The notes under the pieces: generated by a model
Database searches by the model: none
The model's input: only the letters and a program-made list of their open reading frames with translations
Told to the model about the DNA's origin: nothing
NCBI GenBank assembly: GCA_938030745.1
Contig: CALHIP010000026.1
Location: forward strand, 16,404-80,403
Reading direction: 5' to 3'
Length of the DNA stretch: 64,000 nucleotides
Source: an uncultured Patescibacteria group bacterium
GTDB taxonomy: Bacteria > Patescibacteriota > Patescibacteriia > UBA2591 > CALHIP01
Position numbers and translations under genes: made by a program
Shown here: piece after piece, positions 1 through 27,004 of the stretch
How positions within the stretch are numbered: position 1 is the stretch's first letter
How the letters are laid out: each line of letters begins with the position of its first letter

Positions 1-1
1 T

Positions 2-727
2 AAAAAGACAAAAGAAAAAAAAGCAAAAATTTTTGTCATCTGTGGTGGTGGACAATTACATGAATTGGTAAAAAAATATAACTTCCCTTTCTATCAATTT
101 CAAGGTAAAGGTCCTTCAAGAGCAAATTTTGGTTATTTATTCTCCGCTCTTTTAATTTTATTATTAAAATTGAAATTAACAAAAATTAAAGAAAAAGATT
201 TTATTTCATTGATCAAATTGTTGGAGGAATTTAACAAATTGATTGAGCCGGAAACAACTCTTGAGAAAAATGTAGCAAAATATCTTGCTTATCAAATTTT
301 TGACCACATCCCTTTTATTATTGGAGCGGAGCATCTAAAGGCAGTTGCTTTTCGTTGGAAAAAAGAAATAAATGAAAATGCTAAAACTTTTGCCTTTGCA
401 GAAGAAATGCCAGAATTTTTCCATAACAGTATTGTTGGTTTAGATTTTCCATGGCGAATAAGAGATGATATTTTCTTTTTATTTTTAGAAAGTGAACTTT
501 ATGATAAAAAAATTAAAAAATCATTAGAAATTTTTAAAAATATTTTAAAAAAAGAAAATTTATATTTTGAGACTATCCCAGCTCTTGGCAAAGATAGATT
601 AGATCAAACATTAACTACTCTTCTTTTAGGTGATTGGTTAAGTTTTTATTTAGCGATTTTAAATAAAGTTGATCCAACACCAGTTGAAAATATTGAAATA
701 ATTAAAAGAAAACTAAGAGAAAAATGA
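2..727 (+). CDS. 5'-truncated SIS-domain protein, probably bifunctional phosphoglucose/phosphomannose isomerase (PGI/PMI) C-terminal part
   Basis: Frame 2 is open from the window edge (…IFVICGGGQLHELV…) into the listed ORF 65..727. The motif RWKKEINENAKTFAFAEEMPEFFHNSIVG resembles the conserved RWK-x-QLNENAK…PE-x-NHNEIVG block I recall from archaeal-type PGI/PMI. This is memory-based, not a database hit. Confidence 0.5.
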   Translation, partial: KKTKEKKAKIFVICGGGQLHELVKKYNFPFYQFQGKGPSRANFGYLFSALLILLLKLKLTKIKEKDFISLIKLLEEFNKLIEPETTLEKNVAKYLAYQIFDHIPFIIGAEHLKAVAFRWKKEINENAKTFAFAEEMPEFFHNSIVGLDFPWRIRDDIFFLFLESELYDKKIKKSLEIFKNILKKENLYFETIPALGKDRLDQTLTTLLLGDWLSFYLAILNKVDPTPVENIEIIKRKLREK

Positions 728-2367
728 ACTATATTTTTAAAAGTGGTCTTTTTGGATATTTTTCTATTTTTCTGATTTCTTTTCTCTTTTTCTCTTCTCT
801 TCAATTAGCTAATAAAACATTCCTCTGTCCTGATTCTTTTTACCATGCAAAAATTGCTTCATTTTTATCTAATGGCAAATTAATCAGAAATTTTCCTTGG
901 TTACCTTATACAATTTTAGCTGAAAACTATTCTGATCATCATTTTTTATACCACATTTTACTTATCCCATTTGTCAAACTTTTTGGTGATCAAACTGGCA
1001 TAAAAGTTGCAACTTTATTTTTTGCTACTTTTTCAATTTTTATTTTTTATTGGCTTTTAAGAAAATTTAAAATAAAAGCTGCTTTTGTCTGGACATTTCT
1101 CCTTTTAACTAGTTCAGTTTTTTTAACTAGACTAAATTTAGCTAAGGTTCCGCCAGCTGCCTTATCAGTCCTTTTTTTAGGACTTTATGCTTTATTTAAA
1201 AGAAAATATCTTTTGCTTGGAATAATTTCTTTTGTTTATGTTTGGCTTTACAATACCTGGCCAATTTTATTTGTTGCAACAATTCTTTATTGTTTCGCTA
1301 ACGCTTTTAAAAAAATAATTGATAAGTGGCAGATAATATTTCAAAATTTAAAAAGTTTTAAATTTAGGATTTTAATTTTAGGATTTAAAATTTTCTTTAA
1401 AAATTTTTTTGCTAAAGAAAATTTAGGATTAATCATTTCTTGTTTATTTGGTATTGTTTGTGGTTTAGTCATTAATCCTTATTTTCCTTCAAATCTTTAT
1501 TTTAATTGGGTTCATATTGTCAAAATTGGTTTAAAAAATTATCAAAATATTTTGTCAGTTGGTGCTGAATGGTATCCTTTTGAACCAACCAATCTTATTT
1601 TAAATAATCTCTTTATTTTTGCTGTTTGGTTTATTGCTATTGGCTGGTTTTTTGTCAGTTTTAAAAAATCTTCTTTGTTATTTTCTGGCCAGAAAGCAAA
1701 AACACTTTCTCTTTTTATTTTCTCTTCACTTTTTTTAATTTTTACTATTAAATCAAGAAGAAATGTTGAATATTTTGTTCCCTTAGCCATCCTTTTTTCT
1801 TCTTTTTCACTTAATCGTCTTTTTTCAAATTTTCCTTGGAAAGAGTACTTTTCTCAGTTTAAAGTCAAAGAATTTCCTTATAATTTAATGAGCTTCATTC
1901 TTGGTTTTTTTCTTTTAGTGATTTTTGTTTTCTGTAGCTTTTCTTTTTTTGAAAAAGTTTGGGCAGAAAAAATAAAAGAATTTGCTTCTGGAGCAAGTTT
2001 TGACCAGTTTAAAAAAGTTTCAGAATTCTTAAAAGAAAATACCCAAAAAGGTGAGATAATTTTCCATTCTTCTTGGGACGAATTTCCTCCTCTTTTTTAT
2101 CACAATGATAAAAACTATTATATTGCCGGTCTTGATCCAACTTTTATGTATGAAAAAAATAAGGCTCTTTATTGGATCTGGTTTAATATTGTCAGTGGTA
2201 AACAAAAAAATAATTTAAGTAAAACAATTAAAGAAAATTTTAATGCTCGATATGTTTTTGTTCAGGCAAATCGTCAAAAAATGAAAGAAAATCTTGATCA
2301 GGATAAAGATTTTGAGAAAGTTTACGAAGATAAAGAAGGCTATGTTTACAAAATTAAAAATTTTTAA
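724..2367 (+). CDS. Polytopic membrane glycosyltransferase, GT-C fold (PMT/ArnT/AglB-like)
   Basis: 547 aa with more than 10 predicted TM helices. An early loop contains a CPDSFYHAKIA (D-x-x-YH) motif. A soluble C-terminal domain is present. The start overlaps the upstream stop by 4 nt (ATGA). Confidence 0.55.
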   Translation: MNYIFKSGLFGYFSIFLISFLFFSSLQLANKTFLCPDSFYHAKIASFLSNGKLIRNFPWLPYTILAENYSDHHFLYHILLIPFVKLFGDQTGIKVATLFFATFSIFIFYWLLRKFKIKAAFVWTFLLLTSSVFLTRLNLAKVPPAALSVLFLGLYALFKRKYLLLGIISFVYVWLYNTWPILFVATILYCFANAFKKIIDKWQIIFQNLKSFKFRILILGFKIFFKNFFAKENLGLIISCLFGIVCGLVINPYFPSNLYFNWVHIVKIGLKNYQNILSVGAEWYPFEPTNLILNNLFIFAVWFIAIGWFFVSFKKSSLLFSGQKAKTLSLFIFSSLFLIFTIKSRRNVEYFVPLAILFSSFSLNRLFSNFPWKEYFSQFKVKEFPYNLMSFILGFFLLVIFVFCSFSFFEKVWAEKIKEFASGASFDQFKKVSEFLKENTQKGEIIFHSSWDEFPPLFYHNDKNYYIAGLDPTFMYEKNKALYWIWFNIVSGKQKNNLSKTIKENFNARYVFVQANRQKMKENLDQDKDFEKVYEDKEGYVYKIKNF

Positions 2368-4012
2368 TTTTAAAAAAATCAATCTTTTTGTCATTTTGTT
2401 TTTTACTCTCTTGACTATTTTTATTAGTTGGCCATTAGTCCTTAATCTTGATTCAGCTATTTTTGATTTTTTTATTTTTGATTCATTAAATATTATCTGG
2501 ACTATTAATTGGAATATCCATCAAATTTTTAAAGATCCATTTAATCTTTTCCAGGCAAACAATTTTTATCCAGAAAAAAATGCTCTTGCCTATTCTGAAA
2601 ATCTATTAGGGATTAGTTTTTTAGTTTTACCAATCGTTAAAATTTTTAATAATCCTGTTTTGGCTTATAATTTTTCTCTTTTTTTATCCTTTATTCTTTC
2701 TGGTTATGGAATGTTTTTATTAGTTTATCATTTAACAAAAAATTATTCTGCTTCAATTTTGGCAAGTTTAACTTATACTTTTGCTCCTTTTAAAATCTTA
2801 AGAATGCTTATTCATTTAAATATTGTTTCTGGCCAATGGCTACCATTTGTTTTCTTATATCTTGAAAAATTTTTTGAGGAAAAAAACTTAAAAAATATAA
2901 TTTTATTTTCTTTATTTTTTATTCTTCAGAGTTTAACCTCCCTTCATTATTTTGTTTTTTTATTAGTTAGTGTTTTTGTTTTTTTTATAATCAAGATTTT
3001 TTTAAATCGTCAAATTTTAGATAAAGATTTTTTCAAAAAAATATTTATTTCATTTTTTTTAATTTTTATTTTCCTTCTGCCAATTTTTTTGCCATATTTT
3101 CAAATAAAAGAAGGATCGATAGGTAAGGCATGGGAAATTGCTTTTTATACCCCTTCTTTGAAAGATTATTTAAGAGTATGGTATCTTTTAGAAAAAAAAG
3201 AATTAATTAATAATTTAGAAAAATTTGTTTTTATTGGCTTTGTTCCTTTAATTTTATTAATTTTGTCTATTTTTATTTTTAAAAAAATTAAGAAAGAAAA
3301 TCTTATTATTTATGGAGTCATTGGATTAATTGGTTTTTTATTATCTTTAGGACCTTTAATTAAAATAAAGGAAGGTTATATTTTTGGTTTTTATTTACCT
3401 TTTCTATTTATTCCTGGTTTTAACCAGATCAGAGCGGTTAGCCGATTTTCAATTTTATTATTTTTTGGTTTAAGCATTATCTTTGGTTTAGCATTAGCTC
3501 ATCTTTTTAAAAAGGAAATTTTAAAAAAATTTTTATTTTTTTTCTTATCTATTTTATTTCTTTTTGAGATATTTTTTATCTCTTTAAATTTAGTAAAATT
3601 AATTAGGATTCCGGTTGGTAAAGAAATTCCTGAGGTTTATCAGTGGTTGAAAAAAGAAAAGGAAGATTTTGCCATTCTTGAATTACCAATTGCTTTTAAA
3701 GAACAACTTCCATATCTTTACGCTTTAGATATTAACTCTTTTTATCAATATTTTTCCATTTATCATTGGAAAAAATTGGTCAATGGCGATAGTAGTTATT
3801 ATCCTAATTCTTATTTAGAAAGAGTAAAAATCTTTTTAAATTTTCCCGATGAAAAGTCAATCAAATTGATAAAAGAATTAAAAATTAAATATATCATTCT
3901 TCATTATGATTTAATACCTGAAAAAGAAATGATGGAAAATAAAATCCATCAGTGGCCAGAATTATCTTTAAAAAATGTTTTTGGAAATGATTTTCTCTAT
4001 GAAGTTAAATGA
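2342..4012 (+). CDS. Polytopic membrane protein, putative GT-C glycosyltransferase (start uncertain, 2294 or 2342)
   Basis: About 12 hydrophobic helices followed by a roughly 130-aa hydrophilic C-terminus. It overlaps the 3' end of the previous gene. Confidence 0.45.
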   Translation: MFTKLKIFNFKKINLFVILFFTLLTIFISWPLVLNLDSAIFDFFIFDSLNIIWTINWNIHQIFKDPFNLFQANNFYPEKNALAYSENLLGISFLVLPIVKIFNNPVLAYNFSLFLSFILSGYGMFLLVYHLTKNYSASILASLTYTFAPFKILRMLIHLNIVSGQWLPFVFLYLEKFFEEKNLKNIILFSLFFILQSLTSLHYFVFLLVSVFVFFIIKIFLNRQILDKDFFKKIFISFFLIFIFLLPIFLPYFQIKEGSIGKAWEIAFYTPSLKDYLRVWYLLEKKELINNLEKFVFIGFVPLILLILSIFIFKKIKKENLIIYGVIGLIGFLLSLGPLIKIKEGYIFGFYLPFLFIPGFNQIRAVSRFSILLFFGLSIIFGLALAHLFKKEILKKFLFFFLSILFLFEIFFISLNLVKLIRIPVGKEIPEVYQWLKKEKEDFAILELPIAFKEQLPYLYALDINSFYQYFSIYHWKKLVNGDSSYYPNSYLERVKIFLNFPDEKSIKLIKELKIKYIILHYDLIPEKEMMENKIHQWPELSLKNVFGNDFLYEVK

Positions 4013-5636
4013 AATTGAAAAAATTATTCTAATTTTAATTATTATTTTGGCAGGTTTTTTAAGATTAGTTAGTTTAACTAAAGTTCCTTCTTCTTTTCAT
4101 CATGATGAACTTTTAAGTATTTATGAAGCCTATTCAATTTTTAAAACTGGTTCTGATCAATGGGGAAATTTTTTACCTTTAAGATTTAAAGCTTTTGGTG
4201 ACTGGCCACCGCCTTTATATTTTTATTTTAATGTTCCTTTTGTCTTAATTTTTGGTTTAGAAGAAATTACTGTTAGGTTACCATCTGCTTTTTTAGGAAT
4301 TTTAACAGTTTTTTTAACCTACCTTTTAGCTAAAGAAATCTTTAAAAATAAAACTATTGCCATTTTAGCGAGTTTTTTTCTTTCTATCTCTCCTTGGCAT
4401 CTTCAATATTCAAGGCTAGCTTGGCCAGCAATTATGGTTCCATTTTTAATTAGTTTAGGACTTTGGTTATTTTTTTCTGGTCTGAATAATCAAAAGAATT
4501 CCCGCATTTATTTTGCCATCTTTTTTATTTCTCTTTCTGCTTGGGTCTATACACCAGCTCAAGTCTTTGTTCCTCTGTTTCTTTTTGGTCTATTCATTTT
4601 TTATCATAAGAAGGTAGAAAAAAAAGTTATTTTTTATAGTTTTATCATTTCTTTAATTGTTCTTTTTCCTTTATATTTTTTGAGTTTAATTATTCATCCA
4701 GAATGGCAAACAAGATACAATCAGATCTCAATTTTTTCTTTAAATCAAACAGGATCAGTTAAGTTAGCTCTTTTTCTTTATAATTATCTTTCCCATATTA
4801 GCCCTTATTTTCTCTTTATTTATGGTGATAGTAATCTTAGACATAATCCTTTAGGAATTGGCCAGCTTCATTTTTTTGAAATGTTTCTTTTATTTTTTCT
4901 AATTATTTATATAATCACTCCTCAGATTTTTAGAAAACAAAAGTTTTCTCATTTGCCATTTCTTTTTTATTGGTTTTTTATTTTTCCTTTACCTTCTTCT
5001 TTAACAATTGAAAATATTCCTCATGCTACTCGAACAATTGTCGCTTTACCATTGGTCCATCTTTTTTCTTCTTTAGGTCTTTATCTAATTGTTTCCAATT
5101 TAAAAAATTTTAAATTTCTTTACCCTTTTACCTTGATGATTATTGTTATTATTATAGGCTTATCCTTTTCTTTATATTTATTAAATTATTATAAATTCTA
5201 TCCAATCTATTCTGCTTCTTGGTTTGGCTATGGAAATAAGGAGGTAGTAGAATATATTAAAGAAAATCTAAATAATTACGAAAGATTTGTCTTTTCTGGA
5301 ACAAGATACCATCCCTATCTTTATTTTGTTTTCTATTTTAAAATTGATCCGAAAGTTTTCCAAAAGACAGTTAAAACAGATAAAGATTTTGAAGAAAAAT
5401 ATAAAGTGGTGATTGTAAAAAGTTTTAATAATTTTGAATTTAAAGAATCTCTAAAAGAGGAAAAATTTTTACCAAAAACTCTTTATATAGAAAAAAGATA
5501 TCTTGAAACAGAAATAGAAACTGAAAAACAGAATTTGGGGGAAACTTTATTAGAAGAAATTCCTTTAGAAATAAAAAGAATTATTTATTTACCTAATGGG
5601 TTAGAAGCATATCGAATTTATGAATTTAAAAAATGA
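3975..5636 (+). CDS. GT39/GT83-family (ArnT/dolichyl-phosphate-mannose protein mannosyltransferase-like) membrane glycosyltransferase
   Basis: The N-terminal block ILAGFLRLVSLTKVPSSFHHDELLSIYEAYSIFKTGSDQWGNF…GDWPPPLYFY is typical of the PMT_2/ArnT family. It has a polytopic TM region plus a soluble C-terminal domain. Confidence 0.7.
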   Translation: MFLEMIFSMKLNEIEKIILILIIILAGFLRLVSLTKVPSSFHHDELLSIYEAYSIFKTGSDQWGNFLPLRFKAFGDWPPPLYFYFNVPFVLIFGLEEITVRLPSAFLGILTVFLTYLLAKEIFKNKTIAILASFFLSISPWHLQYSRLAWPAIMVPFLISLGLWLFFSGLNNQKNSRIYFAIFFISLSAWVYTPAQVFVPLFLFGLFIFYHKKVEKKVIFYSFIISLIVLFPLYFLSLIIHPEWQTRYNQISIFSLNQTGSVKLALFLYNYLSHISPYFLFIYGDSNLRHNPLGIGQLHFFEMFLLFFLIIYIITPQIFRKQKFSHLPFLFYWFFIFPLPSSLTIENIPHATRTIVALPLVHLFSSLGLYLIVSNLKNFKFLYPFTLMIIVIIIGLSFSLYLLNYYKFYPIYSASWFGYGNKEVVEYIKENLNNYERFVFSGTRYHPYLYFVFYFKIDPKVFQKTVKTDKDFEEKYKVVIVKSFNNFEFKESLKEEKFLPKTLYIEKRYLETEIETEKQNLGETLLEEIPLEIKRIIYLPNGLEAYRIYEFKK

Positions 5637-6316
5637 TCTCCCTTATCATTCCAACTTATAAAGAAAAAGAAAATATTGGTAAATTACTTTTTTTGATTTG
5701 TAAACTTAATCTTAAGGATTTTGAAGTAATTGTTGTTGATGATAATTCACCTGATAACACAGCTGAAGAAGTAGAAAAAAATGCTAAAAAATTGCCTTTG
5801 AAAATAAAATTGATTAAAAGAAAAGGTAAAAGGGATTTATCTCTTTCTGTTTTGGAAGGATTTAAAAAAGCAAAAGGAGAAATTTTAGGAGTAATGGACG
5901 CTGATTTTTCTCATCCACCAGAATTGATTCCAAAAATGATTAAAGAATTGGAAAATGTTGATTTAGTTATTGCCAGTCGAAAAATCTCTGGTGGAGAAAT
6001 CAAAAAATGGCCATTAAAAAGGAAAATTTTTTCAGGATTAGCAACTTTTCTGGCTAAAACCTTAGTTCCAAAAATCTCTGATCCTTTATCTGGTTTTTTC
6101 TTCTTTAAAAGAAAAATTATTAAAGAATTAAAACTTTCACCAATTGGTTATAAAATAGGCTTAGAAATTTTTGTTAAAGGAAAATATAAAAATTTTAAAG
6201 AGATACCATTTGTTTTTAAAGATAGAGAAATTGGAAAAAGTAAGTTAAATTTTAAAGTAATTTTAAAATTTCTTTTCCATATTTTAAAACTCTGGTTTTG
6301 GAAAATAAAAAAATGA
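5633..6316 (+). CDS. GT2 glycosyltransferase, polyprenol-phosphate mannose/glucose synthase (DPM1/GtrB-like)
   Basis: LIIPTYKEKENI…VIVVDDNSPDNT…LGVMDADFSHPPE are GT-A motifs including DxD. A C-terminal amphipathic/TM tail is present. Size 227 aa. Confidence 0.8.
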   Translation: MISLIIPTYKEKENIGKLLFLICKLNLKDFEVIVVDDNSPDNTAEEVEKNAKKLPLKIKLIKRKGKRDLSLSVLEGFKKAKGEILGVMDADFSHPPELIPKMIKELENVDLVIASRKISGGEIKKWPLKRKIFSGLATFLAKTLVPKISDPLSGFFFFKRKIIKELKLSPIGYKIGLEIFVKGKYKNFKEIPFVFKDREIGKSKLNFKVILKFLFHILKLWFWKIKK

Positions 6317-7512
6317 AAGAAATAAAAAAAATTTATTTTTTTCTTTTTCTAGTTATTGTTTTAATCAAATTTTTATTTTTACCTTTTTTTGGTGATTTTT
6401 ATGATTTATTTCTTCATAGTCAATGGGCAAATTTTTTAATTAAAAATCCAATCAATGAGATTTATTCAAAAACAAATTGTAATCTTCCGCCATTTTGGGT
6501 TTATATTTTATGGTTATTTTCTAAAATTCATTTTTTAATCACCAATAAAATAGTTTTTGTTTATTCAGAGGTCTTAAAAATTCCAGCTATTCTTTTTGAT
6601 ATTTTTACTGGCCTTTTGATTTTTTATTTTTTAATTAAAGAAAAAATTGAAGAAAAAAAAGTATTTTTAGCTAGCTTATTTTTCCTTTTAAATCCTTTTG
6701 TTTTTTATCTTTCTTCTTTTTGGGGCCAGCTAGATTCAATCTATGTTTTTTTTATTCTTCTTTCTTTTATTTTTCTTTATTATAAAAAAACAATTTTTGC
6801 CTCAATTTTTCTAGCCCTTTCTTTTTTAACTAAACTCCAAGGGATTATTTTTTTCCCTTTGTTTTTCTTTATTCTTTTTAAAAATTATCCTTTTAAAAAG
6901 ACAATTTTTTCTCTTTTAACTATTCTTCTTGTTATTTTTATTATTCTTTTACCTTTTCTTATTAAAGGATATTCACCAGTTTTTATTTTCCAAAAAACTT
7001 GGATAGCCTCTTGGCGGTTTGCAAATTTTCTTTCTTTAAATGCTTTTAATCTCTGGTGGATTCCTCAGATAATTTTTTCTTTTTTGGAACCTCCTTATAT
7101 TTATGACTACCTTCCTTTGTTTGGCTCAATAAATTTTAAAATGATTTCTTTGATTCTTTTTTCTCTTTTTTATTTGTTAATTATTTTAAATATTAGAAAA
7201 AACATTTTCTTTTTAGCTAGTTTAGTCTCTTTTTTGTTTTTTATGATACCAACAGCTATGCATGAAAGGTATATCTTTCCATTTTTTGCTTTCTTTTCAA
7301 TTTTTTGGCCAATAAAAAGAGGTTATTTAAAATATTATTTTTATCTTTCTTTAACTTCATTTTTAAATCTTTTAGCTGTTTTACCACCAACCTTTCTTTT
7401 CGAAGAAACTCAAAAAATTTTTTCTCTTTTTATTGGTCAATTAAGTATTCCCTTAACACTTATTAATATCTTTATTTTCTTTTATTTTTTCTTTATTCTT
7501 TTTAAAATATGA
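6298..7512 (+). CDS. Polytopic membrane protein, putative GT-C mannosyltransferase (DUF2029/GT87-like)
   Basis: 404 aa, almost entirely TM helices, within the GT cluster. Confidence 0.4.
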   Translation: MENKKMKEIKKIYFFLFLVIVLIKFLFLPFFGDFYDLFLHSQWANFLIKNPINEIYSKTNCNLPPFWVYILWLFSKIHFLITNKIVFVYSEVLKIPAILFDIFTGLLIFYFLIKEKIEEKKVFLASLFFLLNPFVFYLSSFWGQLDSIYVFFILLSFIFLYYKKTIFASIFLALSFLTKLQGIIFFPLFFFILFKNYPFKKTIFSLLTILLVIFIILLPFLIKGYSPVFIFQKTWIASWRFANFLSLNAFNLWWIPQIIFSFLEPPYIYDYLPLFGSINFKMISLILFSLFYLLIILNIRKNIFFLASLVSFLFFMIPTAMHERYIFPFFAFFSIFWPIKRGYLKYYFYLSLTSFLNLLAVLPPTFLFEETQKIFSLFIGQLSIPLTLINIFIFFYFFFILFKI

Positions 7513-7787
7513 GAAAAAATTTTTTAATTACTGGTGGAGCAATCAATAATTTAATCATTTCAATTCTTTTTGGTTTATCTTTAGTTAAAATTTTAGAAAT
7601 TATTAAAGAAATTTCTTTCCGCCCAAATTTATTAGAAATTTTACTTCTTCTTTTTTGTTCTTCTCAATTTTATAGCTATCTTCCTCGATTAGTTCAGAAA
7701 AAAATATATTCATGCATAACTCTTTTATTTATATTTCTAAATAGAAATTATGATAAAAATTCTTATTGTTTTACCAACTTACAATGA
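7509..7787 (+). CDS. Small membrane protein, possibly a truncated GtrA-family flippase-like protein
   Basis: MRKNFLITGGAINNLIISILFGL resembles the GtrA N-terminus. It sits immediately upstream of, and overlapping, a GtrB-like GT2 gene. It is short (92 aa), so it could be spurious. Confidence 0.3.
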   Translation: MRKNFLITGGAINNLIISILFGLSLVKILEIIKEISFRPNLLEILLLLFCSSQFYSYLPRLVQKKIYSCITLLFIFLNRNYDKNSYCFTNLQ

Positions 7788-8472
7788 AGAGAAGGTAGTT
7801 GAAGAAAATACATTAAAAGTTTTTGAATTTTGCCAGAAAAATCTAAAAGATTTTGATTGGCAGATTTTAATAGCTGATAATGGATCAATTGATAAAACAT
7901 TTAAAATTGCTGAAAGACTTTCAAAAAAATATCAAAAAATTTCATTTTTCCATATCCCTGAGAAAGGAAGGGGTTATGCTTTAAAAAAGGCATGGTCAGA
8001 ATATCAGGCTGATATTTATTCTTATATGGATATTGATCTTTCTTCTGATTTAAATTCTTTTCCTTTATTGATTAAGGCAATTACTGAAAATAATTATGAT
8101 TTAGCAATTGGCTCGCGTTTGAAAAAGGGAGCAAAAAAAAGGCGTTCTTTCTTAAGAGAAATTATGAGTCGAGTTTATAATCTTCTTTTAAAAATTTTAT
8201 TTAATCCATCATTTGAAGATGCCCAATGTGGTTTTAAGGCTATCTCAAAAAGAGTCGCCAAAGAAATTCTACCGAAAGTAAAAAATAATCATTGGTTTTT
8301 TGATACTGAACTTTTAATTTTAGCTGAAAAAGCAGGTTTTAAGATTAAAGAAATTCCAATTGAATGGATAGAAAAAAGAACAGTTAAAAGGAAAAGTACA
8401 GTTAAAATTTTTTCAACAATTTGGGAAGATATTAAAGGAATAATAGAATTAAAATTTCGGTTAAAGAAATAA
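7750..8472 (+). CDS. GT2 glycosyltransferase, dolichol/polyprenol-phosphate sugar synthase (GtrB/DPM1-like)
   Basis: ILIVLPTYNEE…LIADNGSIDKT…YMDIDLSSD (DxD)…QCGFKA are GT2 hallmarks. Confidence 0.8.
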   Translation: MIKILIVLPTYNEEKVVEENTLKVFEFCQKNLKDFDWQILIADNGSIDKTFKIAERLSKKYQKISFFHIPEKGRGYALKKAWSEYQADIYSYMDIDLSSDLNSFPLLIKAITENNYDLAIGSRLKKGAKKRRSFLREIMSRVYNLLLKILFNPSFEDAQCGFKAISKRVAKEILPKVKNNHWFFDTELLILAEKAGFKIKEIPIEWIEKRTVKRKSTVKIFSTIWEDIKGIIELKFRLKK

Positions 8473-8534: not shown

Positions 8535-9257
8535 ATGGCAAAAAAACAGAGAAATAACCAAAAAAATAAGGACAACCAAAAAAATAAAAAATTTCCTTGG
8601 TATGGAAGCTTAGCAATTGTTATTACTGCACTTATCGTTTTCCTTATTCTTGGACTAACAATTCTTAGTAAGATCTCAGTTACAAGAAAAGCAAAAGTCA
8701 CTGGTAATGAAGATGAGGTTACAGTAGAGATCCGGAATTTTTCTAATCATGATGAAGTGATGGAATTTCTTTTCAAAAAATTAGACAAGTATAAAGAAAA
8801 CGGGAAAATAAATAAACTTTTTGAAGAAATAAAAAATCTCTCTTATCAGATAGCACAGATAAGAGAACTTCTTAAGGAGAAAAAAGATGAGAATCAGAAA
8901 CTTCAAGCCCAACTGAAAAATCTTGAAAGACAACTTAGTTATAAAACAGATAAATTAATCCAGGAATTAAAAGATAAAAAAGAGCAAAAAGTTAAAGAAG
9001 AAGTTAAAAAAGAAGAACCTCTTAAAGTAATAATTTACAATAAAACTTCAAGAAACGCAGAAATCTCTGGACTTTTCAGATATCCTCGATTGAAAATAAA
9101 CGCCCACGAAAAGATAGTAGTCTATTTATCTCCTGGAGATTACATAATAGAAGTAACGATCGGAAGAAGAAAGGTGCAGACTAAACTTACTGTATCTAAA
9201 AACGAAATTTTTTATCTTGGAGAAGCTTGCTATGGGTATATTGAAATCGACGATTAA
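8535..9257 (+). CDS. Single-pass membrane protein with central coiled coil and C-terminal PEGA-like beta domain
   Basis: Basic N-terminus, one TM helix (LAIVITALIVFLILGLTIL), a heptad-rich segment (QLKNLERQLSYK…) and a C-terminus (SPGDYIIEVTIGRRKVQTKLTV) resembling PEGA domains. Confidence 0.5.
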   Translation: MAKKQRNNQKNKDNQKNKKFPWYGSLAIVITALIVFLILGLTILSKISVTRKAKVTGNEDEVTVEIRNFSNHDEVMEFLFKKLDKYKENGKINKLFEEIKNLSYQIAQIRELLKEKKDENQKLQAQLKNLERQLSYKTDKLIQELKDKKEQKVKEEVKKEEPLKVIIYNKTSRNAEISGLFRYPRLKINAHEKIVVYLSPGDYIIEVTIGRRKVQTKLTVSKNEIFYLGEACYGYIEIDD

Positions 9258-9323: not shown

Positions 9324-9761
9324 TCAACTTGTCTTGACTCTGAAAGGCTTTTCTACTCCTAATCTTTCTAAAATAAATAAATAGATCACTCGGGCTAAAA
9401 TAATGATAACTAAACCAAGAATTGCTTCTTTAATTAAATTTTTTGCTTTTTTAATCTGTTCTTCATTTGCTGAACCAGTTATCCATAAAAAGCCACCATA
9501 AATAATAATAATAATAAAAATAACACCAATAAAAGTTAAAAGATAGTTAATAATTTTAACAATTGTCATTATTGGATCTGTCTCTGTTGGAAGCTCTGGC
9601 ATTTCTTTAGTTACCTCTCCCCAGACTTTTTTTAAAAGATTTAAAGTTCGTTCTTCTACTGGTGTTTGAGCAAAACTTTGGGATAAAGATGAAAAAACAA
9701 AAAGAAGAAAAATCAGCCAAAAAAGAATTATTTTAAATTTTTTAAAGGCAGTAATTTTCAT
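9324..9761 (-). CDS. Pilin-like secreted protein with two-TM core (TrbC/VirB2-like T4SS-pilin family), paralog A
   Basis: Signal peptide MKITAFKKFKIILFWLIFLLFVFSSLSQSFA. Core IINYLLTFIGVIFIIIIIYGGFLWITGSANEEQIKKAKN plus a second TM helix. Confidence 0.55.
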   Translation of the reverse strand: MKITAFKKFKIILFWLIFLLFVFSSLSQSFAQTPVEERTLNLLKKVWGEVTKEMPELPTETDPIMTIVKIINYLLTFIGVIFIIIIIYGGFLWITGSANEEQIKKAKNLIKEAILGLVIIILARVIYLFILERLGVEKPFRVKTS

Positions 9762-9766
9762 ATTTT

Positions 9767-10183
9767 TTATTTAGGCTGGAAAGAAGCAAGGCCGTGTAGT
9801 CGGCTAATTACAAAAGCAGTAATTGTATAGGCAAAAAGAATAACAAGTAAACCAACAAGAGCATAAGTCAAAGTTTTTTTTGCTTTTCCAACTTTTTCTT
9901 CATTACCACCAGCGGTCATCCAAAGGTAACCACTGTAAATAATCATACAAACTGCTATCACTCCTAAAAAAGATAAAAGATATTGAATAATATTAAAAAC
10001 AATTTCAAGAATATCTCCTTTTTCAAGAATTGGTGTTCCTTCAATTAATTCAGATTCATAATCTGATGGTGAGGGAGGTTCTTCTTGAGCTAATAAAATT
10101 TGATTCGGCAAGAAAAAAAATAATAAGAAAATAATAAAACTTTTAAGGAAGATTGATTTCCTCTTATTATTTTTTTTAATCAT
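9767..10183 (-). CDS. Pilin-like protein, paralog B
   Basis: Signal peptide. Core IIQYLLSFLGVIAVCMIIYSGYLWMTAGGNEEKVGKAKK plus a second TM helix. Confidence 0.55.
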   Translation of the reverse strand: MIKKNNKRKSIFLKSFIIFLLFFFLPNQILLAQEEPPSPSDYESELIEGTPILEKGDILEIVFNIIQYLLSFLGVIAVCMIIYSGYLWMTAGGNEEKVGKAKKTLTYALVGLLVILFAYTITAFVISRLHGLASFQPK

Positions 10184-10269
10184 TTTTATATAGAGAAAGA
10201 GTCAGAATTTTCTTTAAAGAAAATCTAAAACTTTTTCCTTGCTTCTTTCTTCAATTTTAAAATCAGAAA

Positions 10270-10632
10270 TTAGGCAAAAGCTCTCAATTGACTGATGACG
10301 AATGAAGCAAGAGCAAAGGCAAGTAAAACAACAATTAAACCAATTAAACCTTGAATTAGGACTTTTTTTGCTTTTCCAACTTTTTCTTCATTACCACCAG
10401 CAGTCATCCACATAAATCCACCAATAATAATCACTACTAAAGCAACTACACCTAAAAAGGCAAGAACATACTGGATAGCAGTAAAGATAATTTTAATTAG
10501 ATCGGCGTTTTTTAAGACTGGCGTCGGTGCAACAAGATTGTTCATCCATTCTTCCCAATTATTAACTTGAGCAAAAACTATAGCTGGTAGAACTAAAAGA
10601 GTTAAGCTTAAAGGTAAAATTAATTTTTTCAT
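10270..10632 (-). CDS. Pilin-like protein, paralog C
   Basis: Signal peptide MKKLILPLSLTLLVLPAIVFA. Core AIQYVLAFLGVVALVVIIIGGFMWMTAGGNEEKVGKAKK. GGAGGG RBS upstream. Confidence 0.55.
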   Translation of the reverse strand: MKKLILPLSLTLLVLPAIVFAQVNNWEEWMNNLVAPTPVLKNADLIKIIFTAIQYVLAFLGVVALVVIIIGGFMWMTAGGNEEKVGKAKKVLIQGLIGLIVVLLAFALASFVISQLRAFA

Positions 10633-10750
10633 ATTTTTTCTTTTTTACTTAACCCTCCAACACACTTAAATATTCATTTACTCGACCTTTTATTATTTTT
10701 ATTATTCATCTTTAAAAATAAAAAGTCAAGAAAGGTTATCCACAAGTTAA

Positions 10751-11104
10751 TTATTTCGGCTGTTCGATAAATTTTTTAATAATGAAAGTCACTAATGAAT
10801 AGGAGAAAAAGACAATGGCTAAACCAAGAGTTGCCCAAACTAATGTATTTTTTCCTTTTTTGACTTGTTCAACGTTGCCACCAGAAGTCATCCAGAGAAT
10901 ACCACCATAAATAAACATAATTAAAGCTAAAACACCAACAATGCCTAAAACAAGTTTAATCGCATTGGCAATGATTTGATACATCTCAAGATTGCCAAGG
11001 GGAGAAGGAAGTTCTTCTTGGGCAAAAATAGGTCTAATAAAATTAAAAAGTAAAAAGTAAAAAGTAAAAATGGTAAGAATAATTATTTTTTTAGAAAGAG
11101 ACAT
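10751..11104 (-). CDS. Pilin-like protein, paralog D (start trimmed to the Met of signal peptide MSLSKKIIILTIFTFYFLLFNFIRPIFA)
   Basis: The listed ORF 10751..11212 overlaps the upstream paralog by about 100 nt. The internal ATG at 11102-11104 gives a canonical signal peptide and a 10-nt intergenic gap. Core YGGILWMTSGGNVEQVKKGKN. Confidence 0.5.
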   Translation of the reverse strand: MSLSKKIIILTIFTFYFLLFNFIRPIFAQEELPSPLGNLEMYQIIANAIKLVLGIVGVLALIMFIYGGILWMTSGGNVEQVKKGKNTLVWATLGLAIVFFSYSLVTFIIKKFIEQPK

Positions 11105-11114
11105 AAATTTAAAA

Positions 11115-11567
11115 CTATTCTGATTTTTTTTCTTCGGTAGTAGGAAAAACATACCATTTTTTAGAGCCGAAAATCTCACAGGACTGAAGAATCTGACCTT
11201 TTGAAAGACCACAAATAATTATATTGACAATATACCAGGAAAGAAAAACAATCATCAAGCCAAATAAAGTACCAATTAAAATTTGTTTTCCTCTTTTCAC
11301 TCTTAAAGGGTTTCCGCCTGAAGTTATCCAGATTATACCACCAACAATGAAAAAGATCAAAGCAAGAACTCCAATTATTCCTAAAAGAAAAAGAGAAACA
11401 CCTCTAGCTAATCTTAAAAAATCAATTAATTGACAATTGCCTTCTTCCCGACACTCCAAACTTACTTCCTTAAGGATATACCATTCAGCAGCGGAAACAG
11501 ATCTAAGAAATAAAAGAGGAAAAATAATCAATAATAAACCAGCGATTAATAAATTCTTTTTTTTCAT
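11115..11567 (-). CDS. Pilin-like protein, paralog E (Cys-containing N-terminal ectodomain)
   Basis: Signal peptide MKKKNLLIAGLLLIIFPLLFLRSVSA. Core LGIIGVLALIFFIVGGIIWITSGGNPLRVKRGKQ plus a second TM helix. Confidence 0.5.
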   Translation of the reverse strand: MKKKNLLIAGLLLIIFPLLFLRSVSAAEWYILKEVSLECREEGNCQLIDFLRLARGVSLFLLGIIGVLALIFFIVGGIIWITSGGNPLRVKRGKQILIGTLFGLMIVFLSWYIVNIIICGLSKGQILQSCEIFGSKKWYVFPTTEEKKSE

Positions 11568-11572
11568 AAAAT

Positions 11573-12958
11573 TTATTTTATTGTTTGATTTATTTTTAAA
11601 ACAGCAAAATTAATTGCCTCTTTATAGGTTTTTTTACCATCAATGACATCATTAATCATTTCCTTCATCGCTTCTTCCATTAAAAGAGCATTTTTACCTT
11701 TATACCAAGAAAAAGCAGTTAAAGATTGACTGGCGAAAACTTCTAAATCAGGATCTTTCATTTGTTCAACAATTAAGCTTCTTAAAGCTGTTGGTTTTTT
11801 AGTTTTAAGAAGATAACCAACAGGATTTAAGGCAGAAAATTTTAAAAATGCCCAAGCTAAATCTTTATTTTCACTTTTTTTTGAAACAACCTGAACTTGA
11901 TAATGAGCGAAATTTATTTCTTTAATTGTTCCTTCTGGTTGAGGCATTTTAGCAATTCCTAAAGGAATGTTTGGTCCTTGGCTTCTAATTAAAGGAAGGT
12001 GATAGGCATAACCGAAGAAAAAAGCTAATTTTCCTTGAGTAAAAAGTTCTAAAGCTCTTGGCATTTCTTTATTCCAAGTATAGATTTCTTTATTTTTATC
12101 TTGAAAATCAGTATAAAATCTTAATGCCTCTTCTGCTGGAAAATAATTTGGATCACCAGCTAATGGCTGGTTAAAAGTAGCAAAACCATCTGGATTACTC
12201 ATTGAAGTTCCAACCTGCATCATTAACAATGATAAAATATCAGTTGGTCTTTCAATATTATTAGTAGTCCCTAAAGCAGCTCCTGCTTGATAAATATTTC
12301 CTTCTTTATCAATTAAAGTTAATTTTTTTACTTGTTGAATAAATTCTTCCCAAGTTTTTGGTGGTAAAGGAATTTTTGCTACATCTAGAAGATCCCGATT
12401 ATAATATAAAACTAAAGTATCAAAACTTAAAGGAAGACCATAAATTTTATTATTAATCACAACATCTTTTTCAACCTGAGCAACAAACAACTTTGATAAA
12501 TCTTCAACTCTTAAAAGTTTTTCTTCTTTTGTTAAAATCTTTCTTTTTTTAAAACAGCCTGGGCCTGTTTCAATTTCTTTTTTTAAAAAAACACTATTTG
12601 GCATTGGTTCAAGCCATTCTTTGGCATATTCTCTTATCCAAGTATTAGGTAAAGAAAAAATATCAGGGCCAACTCCTTTTGCCCAAGCCTCAATTAAAGC
12701 ATCTTTGTATTCTTCATACCGAAGTTTTCTCACGTTAATATTAACATGAGGATAAACAGCTTGAAATTGACTAATCAAAGGAGAAAAATCAGATGGTTCT
12801 TCCCAAATTACCCACCAATTTAAAGTAACTGGCGGTAAAATTGGCTTTTTAGCTGGTGCTCCTGGCATTGGCAACTGAGGAATCTGGCTTTCTACTTTCG
12901 CTCCAAAGATAAGAAAGAAAAAAATTAAAGATAAGAGGAAAATTTTAACTAACCGCAT
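11573..12958 (-). CDS. ABC-transporter family-1 extracellular solute-binding protein (sugar/oligosaccharide type); no cognate permease or ATPase nearby
   Basis: 461 aa with an N-terminal signal/anchor sequence. The overall pattern NWWVIWEEP…GPDIF…W matches the SBP_bac_1 family. Confidence 0.6.
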   Translation of the reverse strand: MRLVKIFLLSLIFFFLIFGAKVESQIPQLPMPGAPAKKPILPPVTLNWWVIWEEPSDFSPLISQFQAVYPHVNINVRKLRYEEYKDALIEAWAKGVGPDIFSLPNTWIREYAKEWLEPMPNSVFLKKEIETGPGCFKKRKILTKEEKLLRVEDLSKLFVAQVEKDVVINNKIYGLPLSFDTLVLYYNRDLLDVAKIPLPPKTWEEFIQQVKKLTLIDKEGNIYQAGAALGTTNNIERPTDILSLLMMQVGTSMSNPDGFATFNQPLAGDPNYFPAEEALRFYTDFQDKNKEIYTWNKEMPRALELFTQGKLAFFFGYAYHLPLIRSQGPNIPLGIAKMPQPEGTIKEINFAHYQVQVVSKKSENKDLAWAFLKFSALNPVGYLLKTKKPTALRSLIVEQMKDPDLEVFASQSLTAFSWYKGKNALLMEEAMKEMINDVIDGKKTYKEAINFAVLKINQTIK

Positions 12959-12967
12959 AAATTTGAT

Positions 12968-16485: not shown

Positions 16486-16868
16486 ATGATTGGATAAATT
16501 AAGAAATAATGGCAGAAATTAAATAAATAGCAAATAATTTTATAAAAAATCAATGGTAAGAGAATAAGATAGAAAATAAAAATAATCAGGCAGATAAAAG
16601 AAGCAAGAATAATTTTGAAAATATAAAAAGAAAGGTGGATGACTCTCATAAAAAAACTAATGATCCGACCTTCTCTTGAATAATCGCCATACATTGGTTT
16701 GAAAAGATTGGCAATTAAAATTTTTAAAACAATTGGATTTGAAATTTCAAGGATTGTTCTTCTCAAGAAATTGAAAAATTTGACTAATCCTTTAGAATAC
16801 CACCATAATGGAAAATAAAGAATGAGGACTAAAGGTTCTAAAATAAAAGTTTTAAAAATAATATCCAT
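16482..16868 (-). CDS. Small polytopic membrane protein, unknown function
   Basis: 128 aa with 3-4 hydrophobic helices. Translationally coupled between yidC and the clp-like gene (ATGA overlap). Confidence 0.4.
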   Translation of the reverse strand: MDIIFKTFILEPLVLILYFPLWWYSKGLVKFFNFLRRTILEISNPIVLKILIANLFKPMYGDYSREGRIISFFMRVIHLSFYIFKIILASFICLIIFIFYLILLPLIFYKIICYLFNFCHYFLIYPII

Positions 16869-16870
16869 AT

Positions 16871-21412: not shown

Positions 21413-21430
21413 AGCTTATCTTATCAGTTC

Positions 21431-21459
21431 TTTACTGTTTTGTCAAATTTTGATATAAT
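21431..21459 (+). promoter_or_regulatory. Extended -10 promoter (TTTACT, 17 nt, TGaTATAAT) 8 nt upstream of the S1-gene ATG
   Basis: TATAAT at 21454-21459 with TG at 21451-21452. No SD before the ATG at 21468, implying a leaderless or near-leaderless mRNA. Confidence 0.45.
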
Positions 21460-21467
21460 GAATAAAT

Positions 21468-24301: not shown

Positions 24302-24303
24302 TT

Positions 24304-26392: not shown

Positions 26393-26411
26393 TTTGATAT
26401 AATAAAATAAT

Positions 26412-26987: not shown

Positions 26988-27004
26988 AGATATTAAATAT
27001 TTAA

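Follow-up and report, generated by a model that had tools for sequence, protein, structure and literature searches.

A Patescibacterial operon of putative lipid-carrier glycosylation enzymes with an oligosaccharyltransferase-shaped core transferase

Eight tandem genes, four of which encode polytopic membrane proteins, raise the question of which pathway they serve and what that pathway glycosylates. We analyzed them within a 64-kb window, by which we mean the whole stretch of DNA under study. The operon probably directs the loading of sugars onto a lipid carrier and their passage to four GT-C glycosyltransferases at the outer face of the membrane, an assessment that does not extend to the acceptor.

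Gene arrangement

The eight ORFs lie in tandem on the plus strand across positions 2-8472, and neighbors overlap by 4-38 nt. The features considered here are:

ORF1, 2-727, plus strand: bifunctional PGI/PMI gene, of which the cut at the window start leaves the 3' two-thirds
ORF2, 724-2367, plus strand: 547 aa, GT-C glycosyltransferase with an STT3/AglB-like fold
ORF3, 2342-4012, plus strand: 556 aa, GT-C of the DUF6311/YfhO-related group
ORF4, 3975-5636, plus strand: 553 aa, PMT_2-type GT-C (GT39/GT83-like)
ORF5, 5633-6316, plus strand: 227 aa, soluble DPM1-type GT2
ORF6, 6313-7512, plus strand: 399 aa, GT-C of the ALG6/PIG-M/GT87 type
ORF7, 7509-7787, plus strand: 92 aa, hydrophobic orphan
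ORF8, 7750-8472, plus strand: 240 aa, second soluble GT2, DPM1/ArnC-type
galU-like gene, 12968-13828, minus strand: UTP-glucose-1-phosphate uridylyltransferase
GT4 gene, 30890-32044, minus strand: 22 kb from the operon and outside the cluster

Four junctions (ORF1/ORF2, ORF4/ORF5, ORF5/ORF6 and ORF6/ORF7) are 4-nt ATGA overlaps, and longer overlaps occur at ORF2/ORF3 (26 nt), ORF3/ORF4 (38 nt) and ORF7/ORF8 (38 nt). The range of 4-40 nt given for the eight coupled ORFs in a preliminary description is correct when ATG starts are used. Alternative starts exist for ORF3 (TTG at 2294, giving 572 aa), ORF4 (ATG at 3987 and 3999) and ORF6 (TTG at 6298, giving 404 aa); for ORF4 the gene caller took 3987 on L001, an independent, near-identical sister contig. 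Gene calling on L001 yields the identical order of operon genes, and the operon core is found again in dozens of further genomes. The arrangement is therefore not due to chance, and the eight genes are a genuine operon of an ultra-small bacterium of the Patescibacteria (CPR).

Candidate enzymes of sugar supply and lipid loading

ORF1 matches Pfam bact-PGI_C (3.8e-42), and its best NCBIfam matches are bifunctional PGI/PMI models (4e-56 to 5e-43), which bears out its earlier naming as a PGI/PMI. The NCBIfam scores fall under the full-length cutoffs because the window start cuts the gene; the full gene on the sister contig encodes 353 aa with SIS and bact-PGI_C domains. An enzyme of this family interconverts Glc-6-P, Fru-6-P and Man-6-P and could act as a mannose feeder. 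PGI/PMI doubles as a glycolytic enzyme, and its place next to glycosyltransferase genes may be a matter of co-expressing a housekeeping function and not of supplying sugar. The route to mannose has gaps, as neither a phosphomannomutase nor a GDP-mannose pyrophosphorylase is found within the 64-kb window.

The GalU-like protein (TIGR01099 galU, 2.2e-90, 302.8 bits against a cutoff of 326.8; Pfam NTP_transferase, 8.7e-36) is a possible source of UDP-Glc for one of the GT2s, its tie to the operon being positional only. Both galU and a GT4 gene had been described as nearby. The former is on the other strand at a distance of 4.5 kb and is not an operon member, and the latter is too distant for the term.

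ORF5 and ORF8 match Pfam Glycos_transf_2 (1.4e-33 and 1.9e-23, respectively) and share only 29% identity. In phmmer searches of the PDB, the top match of ORF5 is the Dol-P-Man synthase of Pyrococcus furiosus, PfDPMS (5mlz; E 3.4e-56, residues 2-224), in an alignment that includes the MDAD..HPPE motif, with ArnC and GtrB at about 1e-12. PfDPMS is also the best match of ORF8 (7.4e-19), followed by ArnC (9e-9). These nearest solved structures agree with the initial assignment of both proteins to the DPM1/GtrB type, and no cellulose synthase-like types are among the matches. The best NCBIfam GT2 matches are PgfS, ArnC, AglJ, PpgS and a Dol-P-hexose transferase, every one falling far under its equivalog cutoff. 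Dol-P-Man synthase, ArnC and GtrB all produce polyprenyl-phosphate sugars. From sequence, ORF5 is a candidate polyprenyl-phosphate-mannose synthase and ORF8 a candidate synthase of a second polyprenyl-phosphate sugar. Neither has a TM domain, ORF5 lacking any hydrophobic segment, and the membrane domain of PfDPMS, GtrB and ArnC is missing from both, so that access to the lipid would depend on interface helices or a partner.

Four GT-C glycosyltransferases

Three of the four GT-Cs (ORF2, ORF3 and ORF6) have no match in Pfam or NCBIfam scans, and evidence from folds (AF2 models) and profiles was therefore needed. A conserved acidic loop-1 residue is present in each of the four families and transporter folds match none of them, in keeping with the original reading of these proteins as GT-Cs. 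The loop-1 Asp (ORF2 D37, ORF3 D47, the D of DE in ORF4, ORF6 D31) would be the catalytic base in each. Profile-profile comparison links ORF2 to ORF3 (95.9%) and ORF3 to ORF6 (94.0%), and hhalign links ORF4 to the ORF3 family (93.5%).

The fold of ORF2 is like that of STT3/AglB, with ~13 TM helices and a C-terminal alpha/beta globular domain. By two methods its closest structures come from protein oligosaccharyltransferases and not from ArnT or Emb/Aft-type lipid/polysaccharide transferases. Conserved positions include D37 within the family motif D-P-D-S-F-Y-H, a D71-H72-H73 triad in loop 1, 34 residues past D37, R136/K141, V-G-A-E282 in the predicted TM9-TM10 loop, R346/E349, W451-D452 and D471. 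With oligosaccharyltransferase motifs defined as in PMC3703281 and PMC8342417, the invariant W-D right after the last TM helix occupies the place of the peptide-binding WWD, the counterpart of WWDYG being shortened to x-W-D-x-F, and the predicted EL5 loop has ~16 residues. The second DXD is not in loop 2, where R136/K141 stand instead, and the DK/MI motif is not recognized. ORF2 has no Pfam STT3 match and resembles no oligosaccharyltransferase at the sequence level, its family profile giving 0 matches against the PDB at E<=10.

The ORF2 family comprises at least 3,500 clusters at 50% identity, and at least 587 species genomes encode a member, almost all of them from Patescibacteria. ORF2 is a GT-C glycosyltransferase of a large family without annotation that is almost restricted to this group. 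The preliminary description had overlooked both the oligosaccharyltransferase shape and the huge Patescibacteria-specific family.

The conserved residues of ORF3 are D47, R364 and R368, and its C-terminal domain is like the oligosaccharyltransferase core unit. The ORF3 family and ORF2 have this domain fold in common, but the W-D is missing in the ORF3 family. We place ORF3 in the DUF6311/YfhO-related group, with ORF2 as its remote homologue. ORF4 matches Pfam PMT_2 (3.9e-12) and PMT (1.2e-8) and is the one PMT/ArnT-like GT-C expected in the cluster; its loop-1 Asp-Glu motif (HHDELLSIYEAYS) retains the DE in five of five relatives from related loci.

ORF6 has invariant D31, K89, K174, N246 and H317-E318(-R-Y). 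Its homologues carry PF09594 (GT87), PF03155 (Alg6_Alg8), PF06728 and PF05208, with the JGI label 'Gpi18-like mannosyltransferase'. The family profile matches yeast ALG6 (E 2.1e-15) and PIG-M/Gpi14 (1.2e-14) in the PDB. D31 aligns with the Asp of ALG6 GDFEAQRHW, and HERY aligns with HEK. The matching ALG6 residue, D69, is the catalytic base of that enzyme (PMC12653191).

An unconserved ORF in the operon

ORF7 had been taken for a possible GtrA-like flippase component, a reading that finds no support here. It is an unconserved orphan with no Pfam or NCBIfam match at E<=10, and tblastn locates it in the window and sister contig L001 only. It sits in a lineage-specific spacer of 237 nt; in the closest relative (L086) and in three further related loci (L002, L004 and L005) ORF6 overlaps the GT2 gene directly and ORF7 is missing, as it is from all related loci. 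Over 460 nt, L001 differs from the window by a 1-nt indel and three substitutions, all clustered at the ORF7 3' end. As a result the L001 version has 78 aa and no overlap, and neither the 3' end, which varies within the population, nor the 38-nt overlap is stable. ORF7 is probably not a functional component and cannot be shown to be GtrA-like.

A core module and its accessories

We surveyed synteny in 80 species genomes, the informative number (72, 75 or 53) varying with the comparison. PGI/PMI immediately precedes the ORF2 homologue in 47/72, and a DPM1-like GT2 is directly downstream in 26/75 and within 8 kb in 34/53. The ORF8 type is the commonest GT2 adjoining ORF2 homologues. An additional GT-C lies within 8 kb in 21/53, and a minimal ORF2-ORF6-GT2 arrangement is seen at a locus with an ORF2 of just 41% identity. 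The conserved core module across Patescibacteria is PGI/PMI, ORF2 and one GT2; ORF3, ORF4 and ORF6 are lineage-variable accessories. This division had not been picked up from the single locus.

Proposed pathway and acceptor

At the cytoplasmic face, the two GT2s would charge polyprenyl phosphate with monosaccharides. The product of ORF5 is most likely polyprenyl-P-mannose and that of ORF8 a second polyprenyl-P-hexose, possibly glucose via the GalU product. No flippase is found in the operon, and since ORF7 is not a credible one, the lipid-linked sugars are presumably flipped by a protein encoded elsewhere. On the outer face the four GT-Cs, as their fold and conservation suggest, would move the sugars to an envelope acceptor, with ORF2 as the conserved core enzyme and ORF3, ORF4 and ORF6 extending or diversifying the glycan. 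Such a scheme of GT-A, flippase and GT-C is established in Gram-positive envelopes (PMC8035078).

As acceptor of ORF2 we tentatively prefer a protein, secreted or at the surface, to a lipid or cell-wall polymer, because the oligosaccharyltransferase architecture of ORF2 includes the C-terminal domain. In oligosaccharyltransferases this domain binds the acceptor peptide.

Like chemistry on a non-protein acceptor (a teichoic-acid-like polymer, other secondary cell-wall polysaccharide, peptidoglycan or glycolipid) is somewhat less likely. Firmicutes YfhO/GtlB/CsdB-type systems decorate non-protein envelope components, and ORF3, the remote homologue of ORF2, belongs to a YfhO-related group. Gram-positive PMT_2-type GT-Cs mostly modify LTA, WTA or rhamnan (PMC8035078), Patescibacteria are monoderms (PMC12857230), the window holds an MGlcDAG-synthase-like GT4, an enzyme type of glycolipid or LTA-anchor synthesis, and ORF2 has basic R136 and K141 at the place of the second DXD. 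However, its top structural matches are protein oligosaccharyltransferases, its W-D falls at the peptide-binding place, and teichoic-acid or polysaccharide backbone genes are not found beside the operon.

It is unlikely that ORF2 is a true, highly diverged N-oligosaccharyltransferase (AglB/PglB/STT3) that moves a lipid-linked glycan in one piece onto the Asn of N-X-S/T sequons, the remaining GT-Cs completing it at the outer face in the manner of Haloferax AglS. The N-to-C order of motifs is the same (D-P-D in loop 1, V-G-A-E282 at the TIXE position, x-W451-D452 at the WWDYG position), and the partners have an archaeal flavor: an archaeal-type PGI/PMI, a Pyrococcus DPMS-like GT2 and weak AglJ/Agl23 matches. 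Against this stand the null profile and STT3 searches, a loop 2 with R136/K141 and no second DXD, the position of D71-H-H in loop 1, the shortening of WWDYG to W-D and the lack of a recognizable DK/MI. Furthermore, the conserved pairing of ORF2 is with a DPM1-type GT2, which loads monosaccharides, instead of with a phosphoglycosyltransferase and cytoplasmic elongating GTs. The C-terminal domain is not diagnostic of N-glycosylation, as the ORF3 family has it without the W-D, and the neighboring VirB2-like pilins contain no sequons.

That the genes are mere neighbors, the membrane proteins not being glycosyltransferases of one pathway, is very improbable: Patescibacterial genomes are gene-dense with overlapping frames common, and three of the four proteins lack a curated family match, but fold, profile and catalytic-residue evidence puts all four in GT-C and the GT2-GT-C pairing is found again in many distant genomes.

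Comparison with known systems

Three-component transmembrane glycosylation systems include CsbB/GtlA (GT2) with a GtrA/GtcA flippase and a YfhO/GtlB/PMT_2 GT-C, as well as GtrA/B/V and ArnC/ArnT. The operon resembles them in that a lipid-loading GT-A gene adjoins genes for polytopic loop-1-Asp GT-Cs, and ORF3 and ORF4 represent their two most used GT-C types (PMC8035078). In contrast, it has four GT-Cs and two GT2s, the latter without a membrane domain, and no GtrA or Wzx flippase; translational coupling joins its PGI/PMI gene to the first GT-C, and its core GT-C, ORF2, is outside every described family.

ORF4 shares the PMT_2/PMT match and the loop-1 Asp-Glu with PMT (GT39) and ArnT (GT83), but it has no MIR domain and its C-terminal region differs. 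Pfam PMT_2 also covers many enzymes without protein substrates, and the match therefore does not point to one substrate class. Compared with ALG6/ALG8 (GT57), PIG-M/Gpi14 (GT50) and PimE/GT87, the ORF6 profile spans ~350 residues of yeast ALG6 and keeps the catalytic Asp and H-E motif. The window ORF6 is itself under every Pfam threshold and its relatives are divided among several Pfam families, so it cannot be assigned to a single CAZy family. As a bacterial protein it cannot have a Dol-PP-glycan or GPI as substrate.

ORF2 differs from STT3/AglB/PglB (GT66) in having no detectable sequence similarity, in its Arg/Lys, x-W-D-x-F and short predicted EL5 features, in the lack of a recognizable DK/MI motif, and in its conserved genomic partner, which would yield a lipid-monophosphate monosaccharide and not a lipid-linked oligosaccharide. 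The Haloferax Agl pathway uses the Dol-P-hexose synthases AglJ/AglD, AglB, and the Dol-P-Man mannosyltransferase AglS. Both GT2s weakly match AglJ and ORF4 weakly matches Agl23 in NCBIfam, all far under the family cutoffs. The operon has no cytoplasmic elongating GTs and its host is a bacterium, but it is like the Agl pathway in combining DPM1-like GT2s, an oligosaccharyltransferase-shaped GT-C and putative outer-face GT-Cs of the Dol-P-sugar kind.

Gene order and setting of the operon

The locus first described as an envelope glycosylation island consists of eight consecutive plus-strand ORFs at the start of the window, within 8.5 kb, and both the gene set and its coordinates were recovered. 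The same genes are called on L001, a near-identical sister contig that was assembled independently.

Genes of the operon

2-727 (+), ORF1, PGI/PMI, cut by the edge of the window
724-2367 (+), ORF2, large GT-C membrane protein
2342-4012 (+), ORF3, large GT-C membrane protein
3975-5636 (+), ORF4, large GT-C membrane protein, PMT-like
5633-6316 (+), ORF5, DPM1-type GT2
6313-7512 (+), ORF6, large GT-C membrane protein
7509-7787 (+), ORF7, small ORF
7750-8472 (+), ORF8, DPM1-type GT2

When ATG starts are used, the coding regions overlap by four nucleotides (ATGA) at each of the ORF1/2, ORF4/5, ORF5/6 and ORF6/7 junctions, by 26 nt at ORF2/3, and by 38 nt at both ORF3/4 and ORF7/8. The first gene is complete on L001, where it encodes 353 aa. 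The G+C content across the window is 23-32%, and close relatives of the window proteins all come from "Patescibacteria group" metagenome-assembled genomes (MAGs), which places the source organism in the CPR/Patescibacteria. The preliminary description also placed galU and a GT4 gene nearby. For galU the assignment is plausible (TIGR01099, 2.2e-90, slightly below the cutoff), but the gene lies 4.5 kb away on the opposite strand, and the GT4 gene, which resembles monoglucosyl-diacylglycerol synthase, is 22 kb from the operon on the minus strand.

The remainder of the window also contains YidC and ClpB genes and the following features.

Other features of the window

8535-9257 (+), ORF9, between operon and pilin array: 240 aa, N-terminal membrane anchor, long Lys/Glu-rich coiled coil, small C-terminal beta domain
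9324-11567 (-), five tandem, sequence-divergent VirB2-like T4SS_pilin genes
17581-20496 (-), GyrA containing an intein (Intein_splicing and PT-HINT matches at about residues 135-259, within the DNA_topoisoIV domain)
about 20800-21500, suggested replication origin region
25289-26392, dnaN
37940-39106 (-), LysM and CHAP hydrolase, cell-wall related
39219-45815 (+), glycogen/starch-type cluster
47885-49633 (-), VanW/PG_binding_4 protein, cell-wall related
50555-51304 (-), Peptidase_C39_2 protein, cell-wall related

The suggested origin coincides with a minimum of the cumulative GC skew near 20 kb and with a change in gene orientation at about 21.4 kb, from minus (9324-21412) to plus (21468-30778); dnaN, gyrA and yidC are close by, but no dnaA was identified within the window. 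The products of the starch-type cluster are a GT5 starch synthase, two GH57 proteins, of which one also has a polysaccharide deacetylase domain, a GalT-like uridylyltransferase and an APH-family kinase. In L004, a related locus from another genome, a comparable set (1-7425) is found a few kilobases upstream of the glycosylation operon. ORF9 was considered as a conserved partner of the operon and rejected, as no sequence homologue was identified at E<1e-5 in 85 loci. Its position alone is conserved: other loci have either a Band_7 protein or some membrane or coiled-coil protein there.

Soluble enzymes and ORF7

ORF1, the C-terminal part of a bifunctional phosphoglucose/phosphomannose isomerase, matches bact-PGI_C over the full profile (3.8e-42), and PGI/PMI models are the top six NCBIfam matches, in agreement with the identity originally proposed. 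Truncation at the window edge keeps the scores under the equivalog cutoffs; the full-length protein on L001 contains SIS and bact-PGI_C domains.

ORF5 (227 aa) and ORF8 (240 aa) match PF00535 at 1.4e-33 and 1.9e-23, and among all PDB sequences each comes closest to dolichyl-phosphate mannose synthase of Pyrococcus furiosus (PfDPMS), as expected for the DPM1/GtrB-type GT2 enzymes they had been taken to be. ORF5 aligns with PfDPMS over residues 2-224 (E 3.4e-56), with ArnC and GtrB (sll0501) at about 1e-12. The ORF8 match is weaker (E 7.4e-19), with ArnC next at 9e-9. Polysaccharide-type GT2s (chondroitin synthase and others) match weakly and over the N-terminal half only, and it is polyprenyl-phosphate-glycosylating enzymes, not cellulose synthase-like GT2s, that rank best in the PDB. 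With a mutual identity of only 29%, ORF5 and ORF8 probably make different lipid-linked sugars. Both fall below every NCBIfam equivalog cutoff (the PgfS, ArnC, AglJ, PpgS and Dol-P-hexose transferase models are all far under), and the sugars are therefore not fixed by the models. The C-terminal transmembrane (TM) helices of PfDPMS, GtrB and ArnC are absent, as neither ORF5 nor ORF8 contains a hydrophobic segment; both proteins stop at the end of the PfDPMS catalytic and interface-helix region. Human DPM1 likewise is without a TM domain and relies on partner subunits.

ORF7 was originally described as GtrA-like, but a role as a GtrA-type flippase is not credible. The protein has no Pfam or NCBIfam match at E≤10, contains one clear hydrophobic segment where three to four TM helices are expected, and is not conserved. 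With the 92-aa sequence as query, tblastn matches are confined to the window and L001. It sits in a 237-nt spacer that is missing from all related loci, and in the closest of these the ORF6 homologue (69% identical) directly overlaps the GT2 gene. Over 460 nt the window and L001 differ solely by a 1-nt indel and three substitutions, all at the 3' end of ORF7, and these take the ORF from 92 to 78 aa. We also considered ORF7 as a GacJ-like small membrane partner of a TM-less GT2 (an idea taken from PMC8035078), which was rejected for the same lack of family match and conservation, and the spacer as a repeat or mobile element, for which blastn gives chance-level matches only. No flippase was identified in the locus.

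GT-C membrane proteins

The proposal that ORF2, ORF3, ORF4 and ORF6 are GT-C enzymes is borne out by fold (ORF2 and ORF3) or sequence (ORF4 and ORF6), and in all four families an acidic residue is found in loop 1, right after TM1.

Acidic loop-1 residues of the four GT-C families

ORF2: D37, 98% conserved
ORF3: D47, column 100% acidic
ORF4: Asp-Glu in HHDELLSIYEAYS, 5/5 relatives
ORF6: D31, 100% conserved

No transporter fold occurs among the significant structure matches for the ORF2 or ORF3 model. ORF4 is the sole membrane protein with a direct Pfam match (PMT_2, 3.9e-12, and PMT, 1.2e-8) and is thus the PMT-like enzyme predicted for the operon. Pfam and NCBIfam scans of ORF2, ORF3 and ORF6 give no match even at an E-value of 10, and family alignments were therefore built. 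Profile-profile comparison with hhalign gives probabilities of 95.9% for ORF2-ORF3 (over the full length, including the C-terminal domain), 94.0% for ORF3-ORF6 and 93.5% for ORF4-ORF3. The direct comparison of the ORF2 and ORF6 families is not significant (3%), so the two are connected solely via ORF3.

The precomputed database annotation of ORF3 is PF19830 (DUF6311), and its relatives are also assigned to PF10131 or PF09586 (YfhO). Our hmmscan against the Pfam copy finds no family at E≤10 although PF19830 is precomputed for the exact protein, a discrepancy that may reflect the Pfam version or a filter. Relatives of ORF6 are assigned to PF09594 (GT87), PF03155 (Alg6_Alg8), and PF06728 and PF05208 (PIG-U and ALG3 domains), and carry the JGI name "Gpi18-like mannosyltransferase". 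The ORF6 family profile matches yeast ALG6 over about 350 residues at E 2.1e-15, and GPI mannosyltransferase I (PIG-M) at E 1.2e-14. In the alignment, invariant D31 falls on the Asp of ALG6 GDFEAQRHW, which is D69, the catalytic base (PMC12653191), and invariant H317-E318 falls on ALG6 H-E-K. In the related locus L088, a polytopic protein encoded after the ORF6 homologue (1436-2281) has a loop-1 motif, ALDDPYIHMAMAKNF, that resembles DPDSFYHAKMA of the ORF2 family and may point to another related GT-C family.

Structural similarity of ORF2 to oligosaccharyltransferases

The AF2 model of ORF2 is of very high confidence, with a pLDDT of 94.3 and a pTM of 0.92, and the nine top-ranked matches in a Foldseek search are all STT3 chains (E 5e-10 to 4e-8). 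The family profile matches nothing among all PDB sequences at E≤10, and the link to the oligosaccharyltransferases is therefore purely structural.

STT3, AglB and PglB have 13 TM helices and, at the C-terminus, a globular domain with a CC unit. They share DXD motifs in EL1 and EL2 (Asp161-His-His163 in AfAglB), a TIXE/SVSE motif with a catalytic Glu in EL5, and, within the C-terminal domain, WWDYG and DK/MI motifs that form a Ser/Thr pocket (PMC3703281, PMC8342417). Like these enzymes, ORF2 has a predicted 13-TM region followed by a C-terminal globular domain with the CC core unit, and the family has the EL1 consensus D35-P-D37 (D-P-D-S-F-Y-H) straight after TM1. Position 35 is acidic in 83% of the family; the window protein reads C35-P-D37 and has the second Asp only. 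Unlike these enzymes, ORF2 is missing the EL2 DXD: the predicted TM3-TM4 loop (138-142) has invariant R136/K141 and no acidic residue. A conserved D71-H72-H73 triad is present but lies in EL1, 34 residues past D37 with no TM helix between. The invariant V279-G280-A-E282, a possible counterpart of the EL5 motif, is in a predicted loop between helices 256-271 and 288-311, counted as TM9 and TM10. Of WWDYG, only W451 (100%) and D452 (94%) would be retained in the C-terminal domain; they stand in the context S/D-W-D-x-F-P, behind a beta-strand and some 30 residues from the end of the last TM helix. Neither form of the DK/MI motif, DXXKXXX(M/I) or MXXIXXX(I/V/W), is recognisable, and a kinked helix (472-478/480-490) follows the W-D.

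Distribution and genomic context of the ORF2 family

By exhaustive HMM search, the family numbers 3,531 representative clusters (50% identity) at E≤1e-3, and 1,562 at E≤1e-30. At least 587 genomes in the GTDB species set encode a relative. Nearly all genome titles among the matches listed name Patescibacteria (Falkow-, Buchanan-, Kerfeld- and Kuenenbacteria, Parcubacteria and one Microgenomatus). For L014, L019, L023 and about 20 other GTDB loci with the module, the MAG record bears the title 'uncultured Gammaproteobacteria bacterium' (TPA/binchicken assemblies). These records include a complete 886-kb chromosome, and given this size and the gene content the titles look like placeholder or wrong labels. 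Two further loci, titled Binatia and Vicinamibacterales, may be mis-binned.

Gene neighbourhood of the ORF2 homologue in the best 80 loci (denominators are informative loci)

PGI/PMI directly upstream: 47/72
DPM1-like GT2 directly downstream: 26/75
DPM1-like GT2 within 8 kb: 34/53
ORF6-like GT-C within 8 kb: 16/53
Any further GT-C within 8 kb: 21/53
VirB2-like pilin gene array within 8 kb: 26/53

The minimal order ORF2-ORF6-GT2, followed by pilin genes, occurs in a locus with an ORF2 of only 41% identity, and among closer relatives ORF3 is missing, or a second PMT_2 protein and a methyltransferase are added. The counts and these variant loci together identify PGI/PMI, ORF2 and GT2 as a stable core and the other GT-Cs as variable accessories, which fits diversification of the glycan between lineages.

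The pilin array lies just downstream of the operon on the opposite strand, and similar arrays accompany L002, L004, L005 and roughly every second ORF2-family locus. Pilin arrays of this type have been described from Patescibacteria in a paper that makes no mention of a glycosylation locus beside them (PMC12102498). The five pilins were rejected as N-glycosylation substrates, as 0/5 contain an N-X-S/T sequon; they are not Ser/Thr-rich either. O-linked modification of their short N-terminal parts is conceivable.

Proposed function

The analysis establishes folds, families and the conservation of catalytic residues; the functional statements made for the operon are computational, and we infer the sugars, the order of action and the acceptor. 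The DPM1-type GT2 enzymes would build polyprenyl-phosphate sugars in the cytoplasm, some protein outside the identified set would flip them, and the GT-C enzymes would pass the sugars on at the outer face. The ORF5 sugar is likely mannose, and that of ORF8 a second hexose, perhaps glucose supplied via GalU.

We lean towards a protein as the acceptor of ORF2 because of the predicted oligosaccharyltransferase-like architecture and the W-D motif. A wall polymer or a lipid would be nearly as likely an acceptor. It is unlikely that ORF2 is a bona fide en-bloc N-oligosaccharyltransferase, because the EL2 DXD motif is missing and the partner GT2 loads monosaccharides; the lack of sequons in the neighbouring pilins also argues against it. 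The basic residues that replace the metal-binding DXD would, in our own reading, suit a monophosphate-linked donor.

The most novel proposal, to which we assign a low probability, is that the ORF2 family comprises hitherto unrecognised Patescibacteria protein glycosyltransferases derived from AglB/STT3, in which the second DXD (metal/pyrophosphate-binding) was replaced by Arg/Lys and the donor became a polyprenyl-monophosphate hexose from the adjacent GT2. Such an enzyme would initiate glycosylation of surface proteins (S-layer proteins, adhesins, VirB2-like pilins), with the accessory GT-Cs diversifying the glycan between lineages. If so, the candidate acceptors are the structures by which episymbionts contact their hosts.

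A large part of bacterial diversity belongs to the Patescibacteria, whose life is spent attached to other microbes and whose surface chemistry is almost unknown. The conserved combination of PGI/PMI, an ORF2-type GT-C and a Dol-P-Man-synthase-like GT2 suggests that lipid-carrier-based outer-face glycosylation is a conserved trait in a large part of the group. For the thousands of ORF2-family sequences now named "hypothetical protein", a fold is predicted, catalytic residues are proposed and a function can be put to the test. With a protein acceptor, the family would be a new bacterial branch of the oligosaccharyltransferase lineage and a handle on host recognition by episymbionts; with a wall polymer acceptor, it would be a new GT-C group for multi-component glycosylation systems.

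Comparison with known systems

The searchable literature yielded no link between Patescibacteria/CPR and oligosaccharyltransferases, STT3 or GT-C enzymes; CPR genome papers note only multiple "dolichol-phosphate mannosyltransferase" and GT87 annotations. The general scheme, in which a GT2 product is flipped and used by a GT-C enzyme, is already known. That literature appears not to describe the ORF2 family, the resemblance of its fold to oligosaccharyltransferases, how tightly it is coupled with PGI/PMI and a DPM1-like GT2, or its frequent adjacency to VirB2-like pilin arrays.
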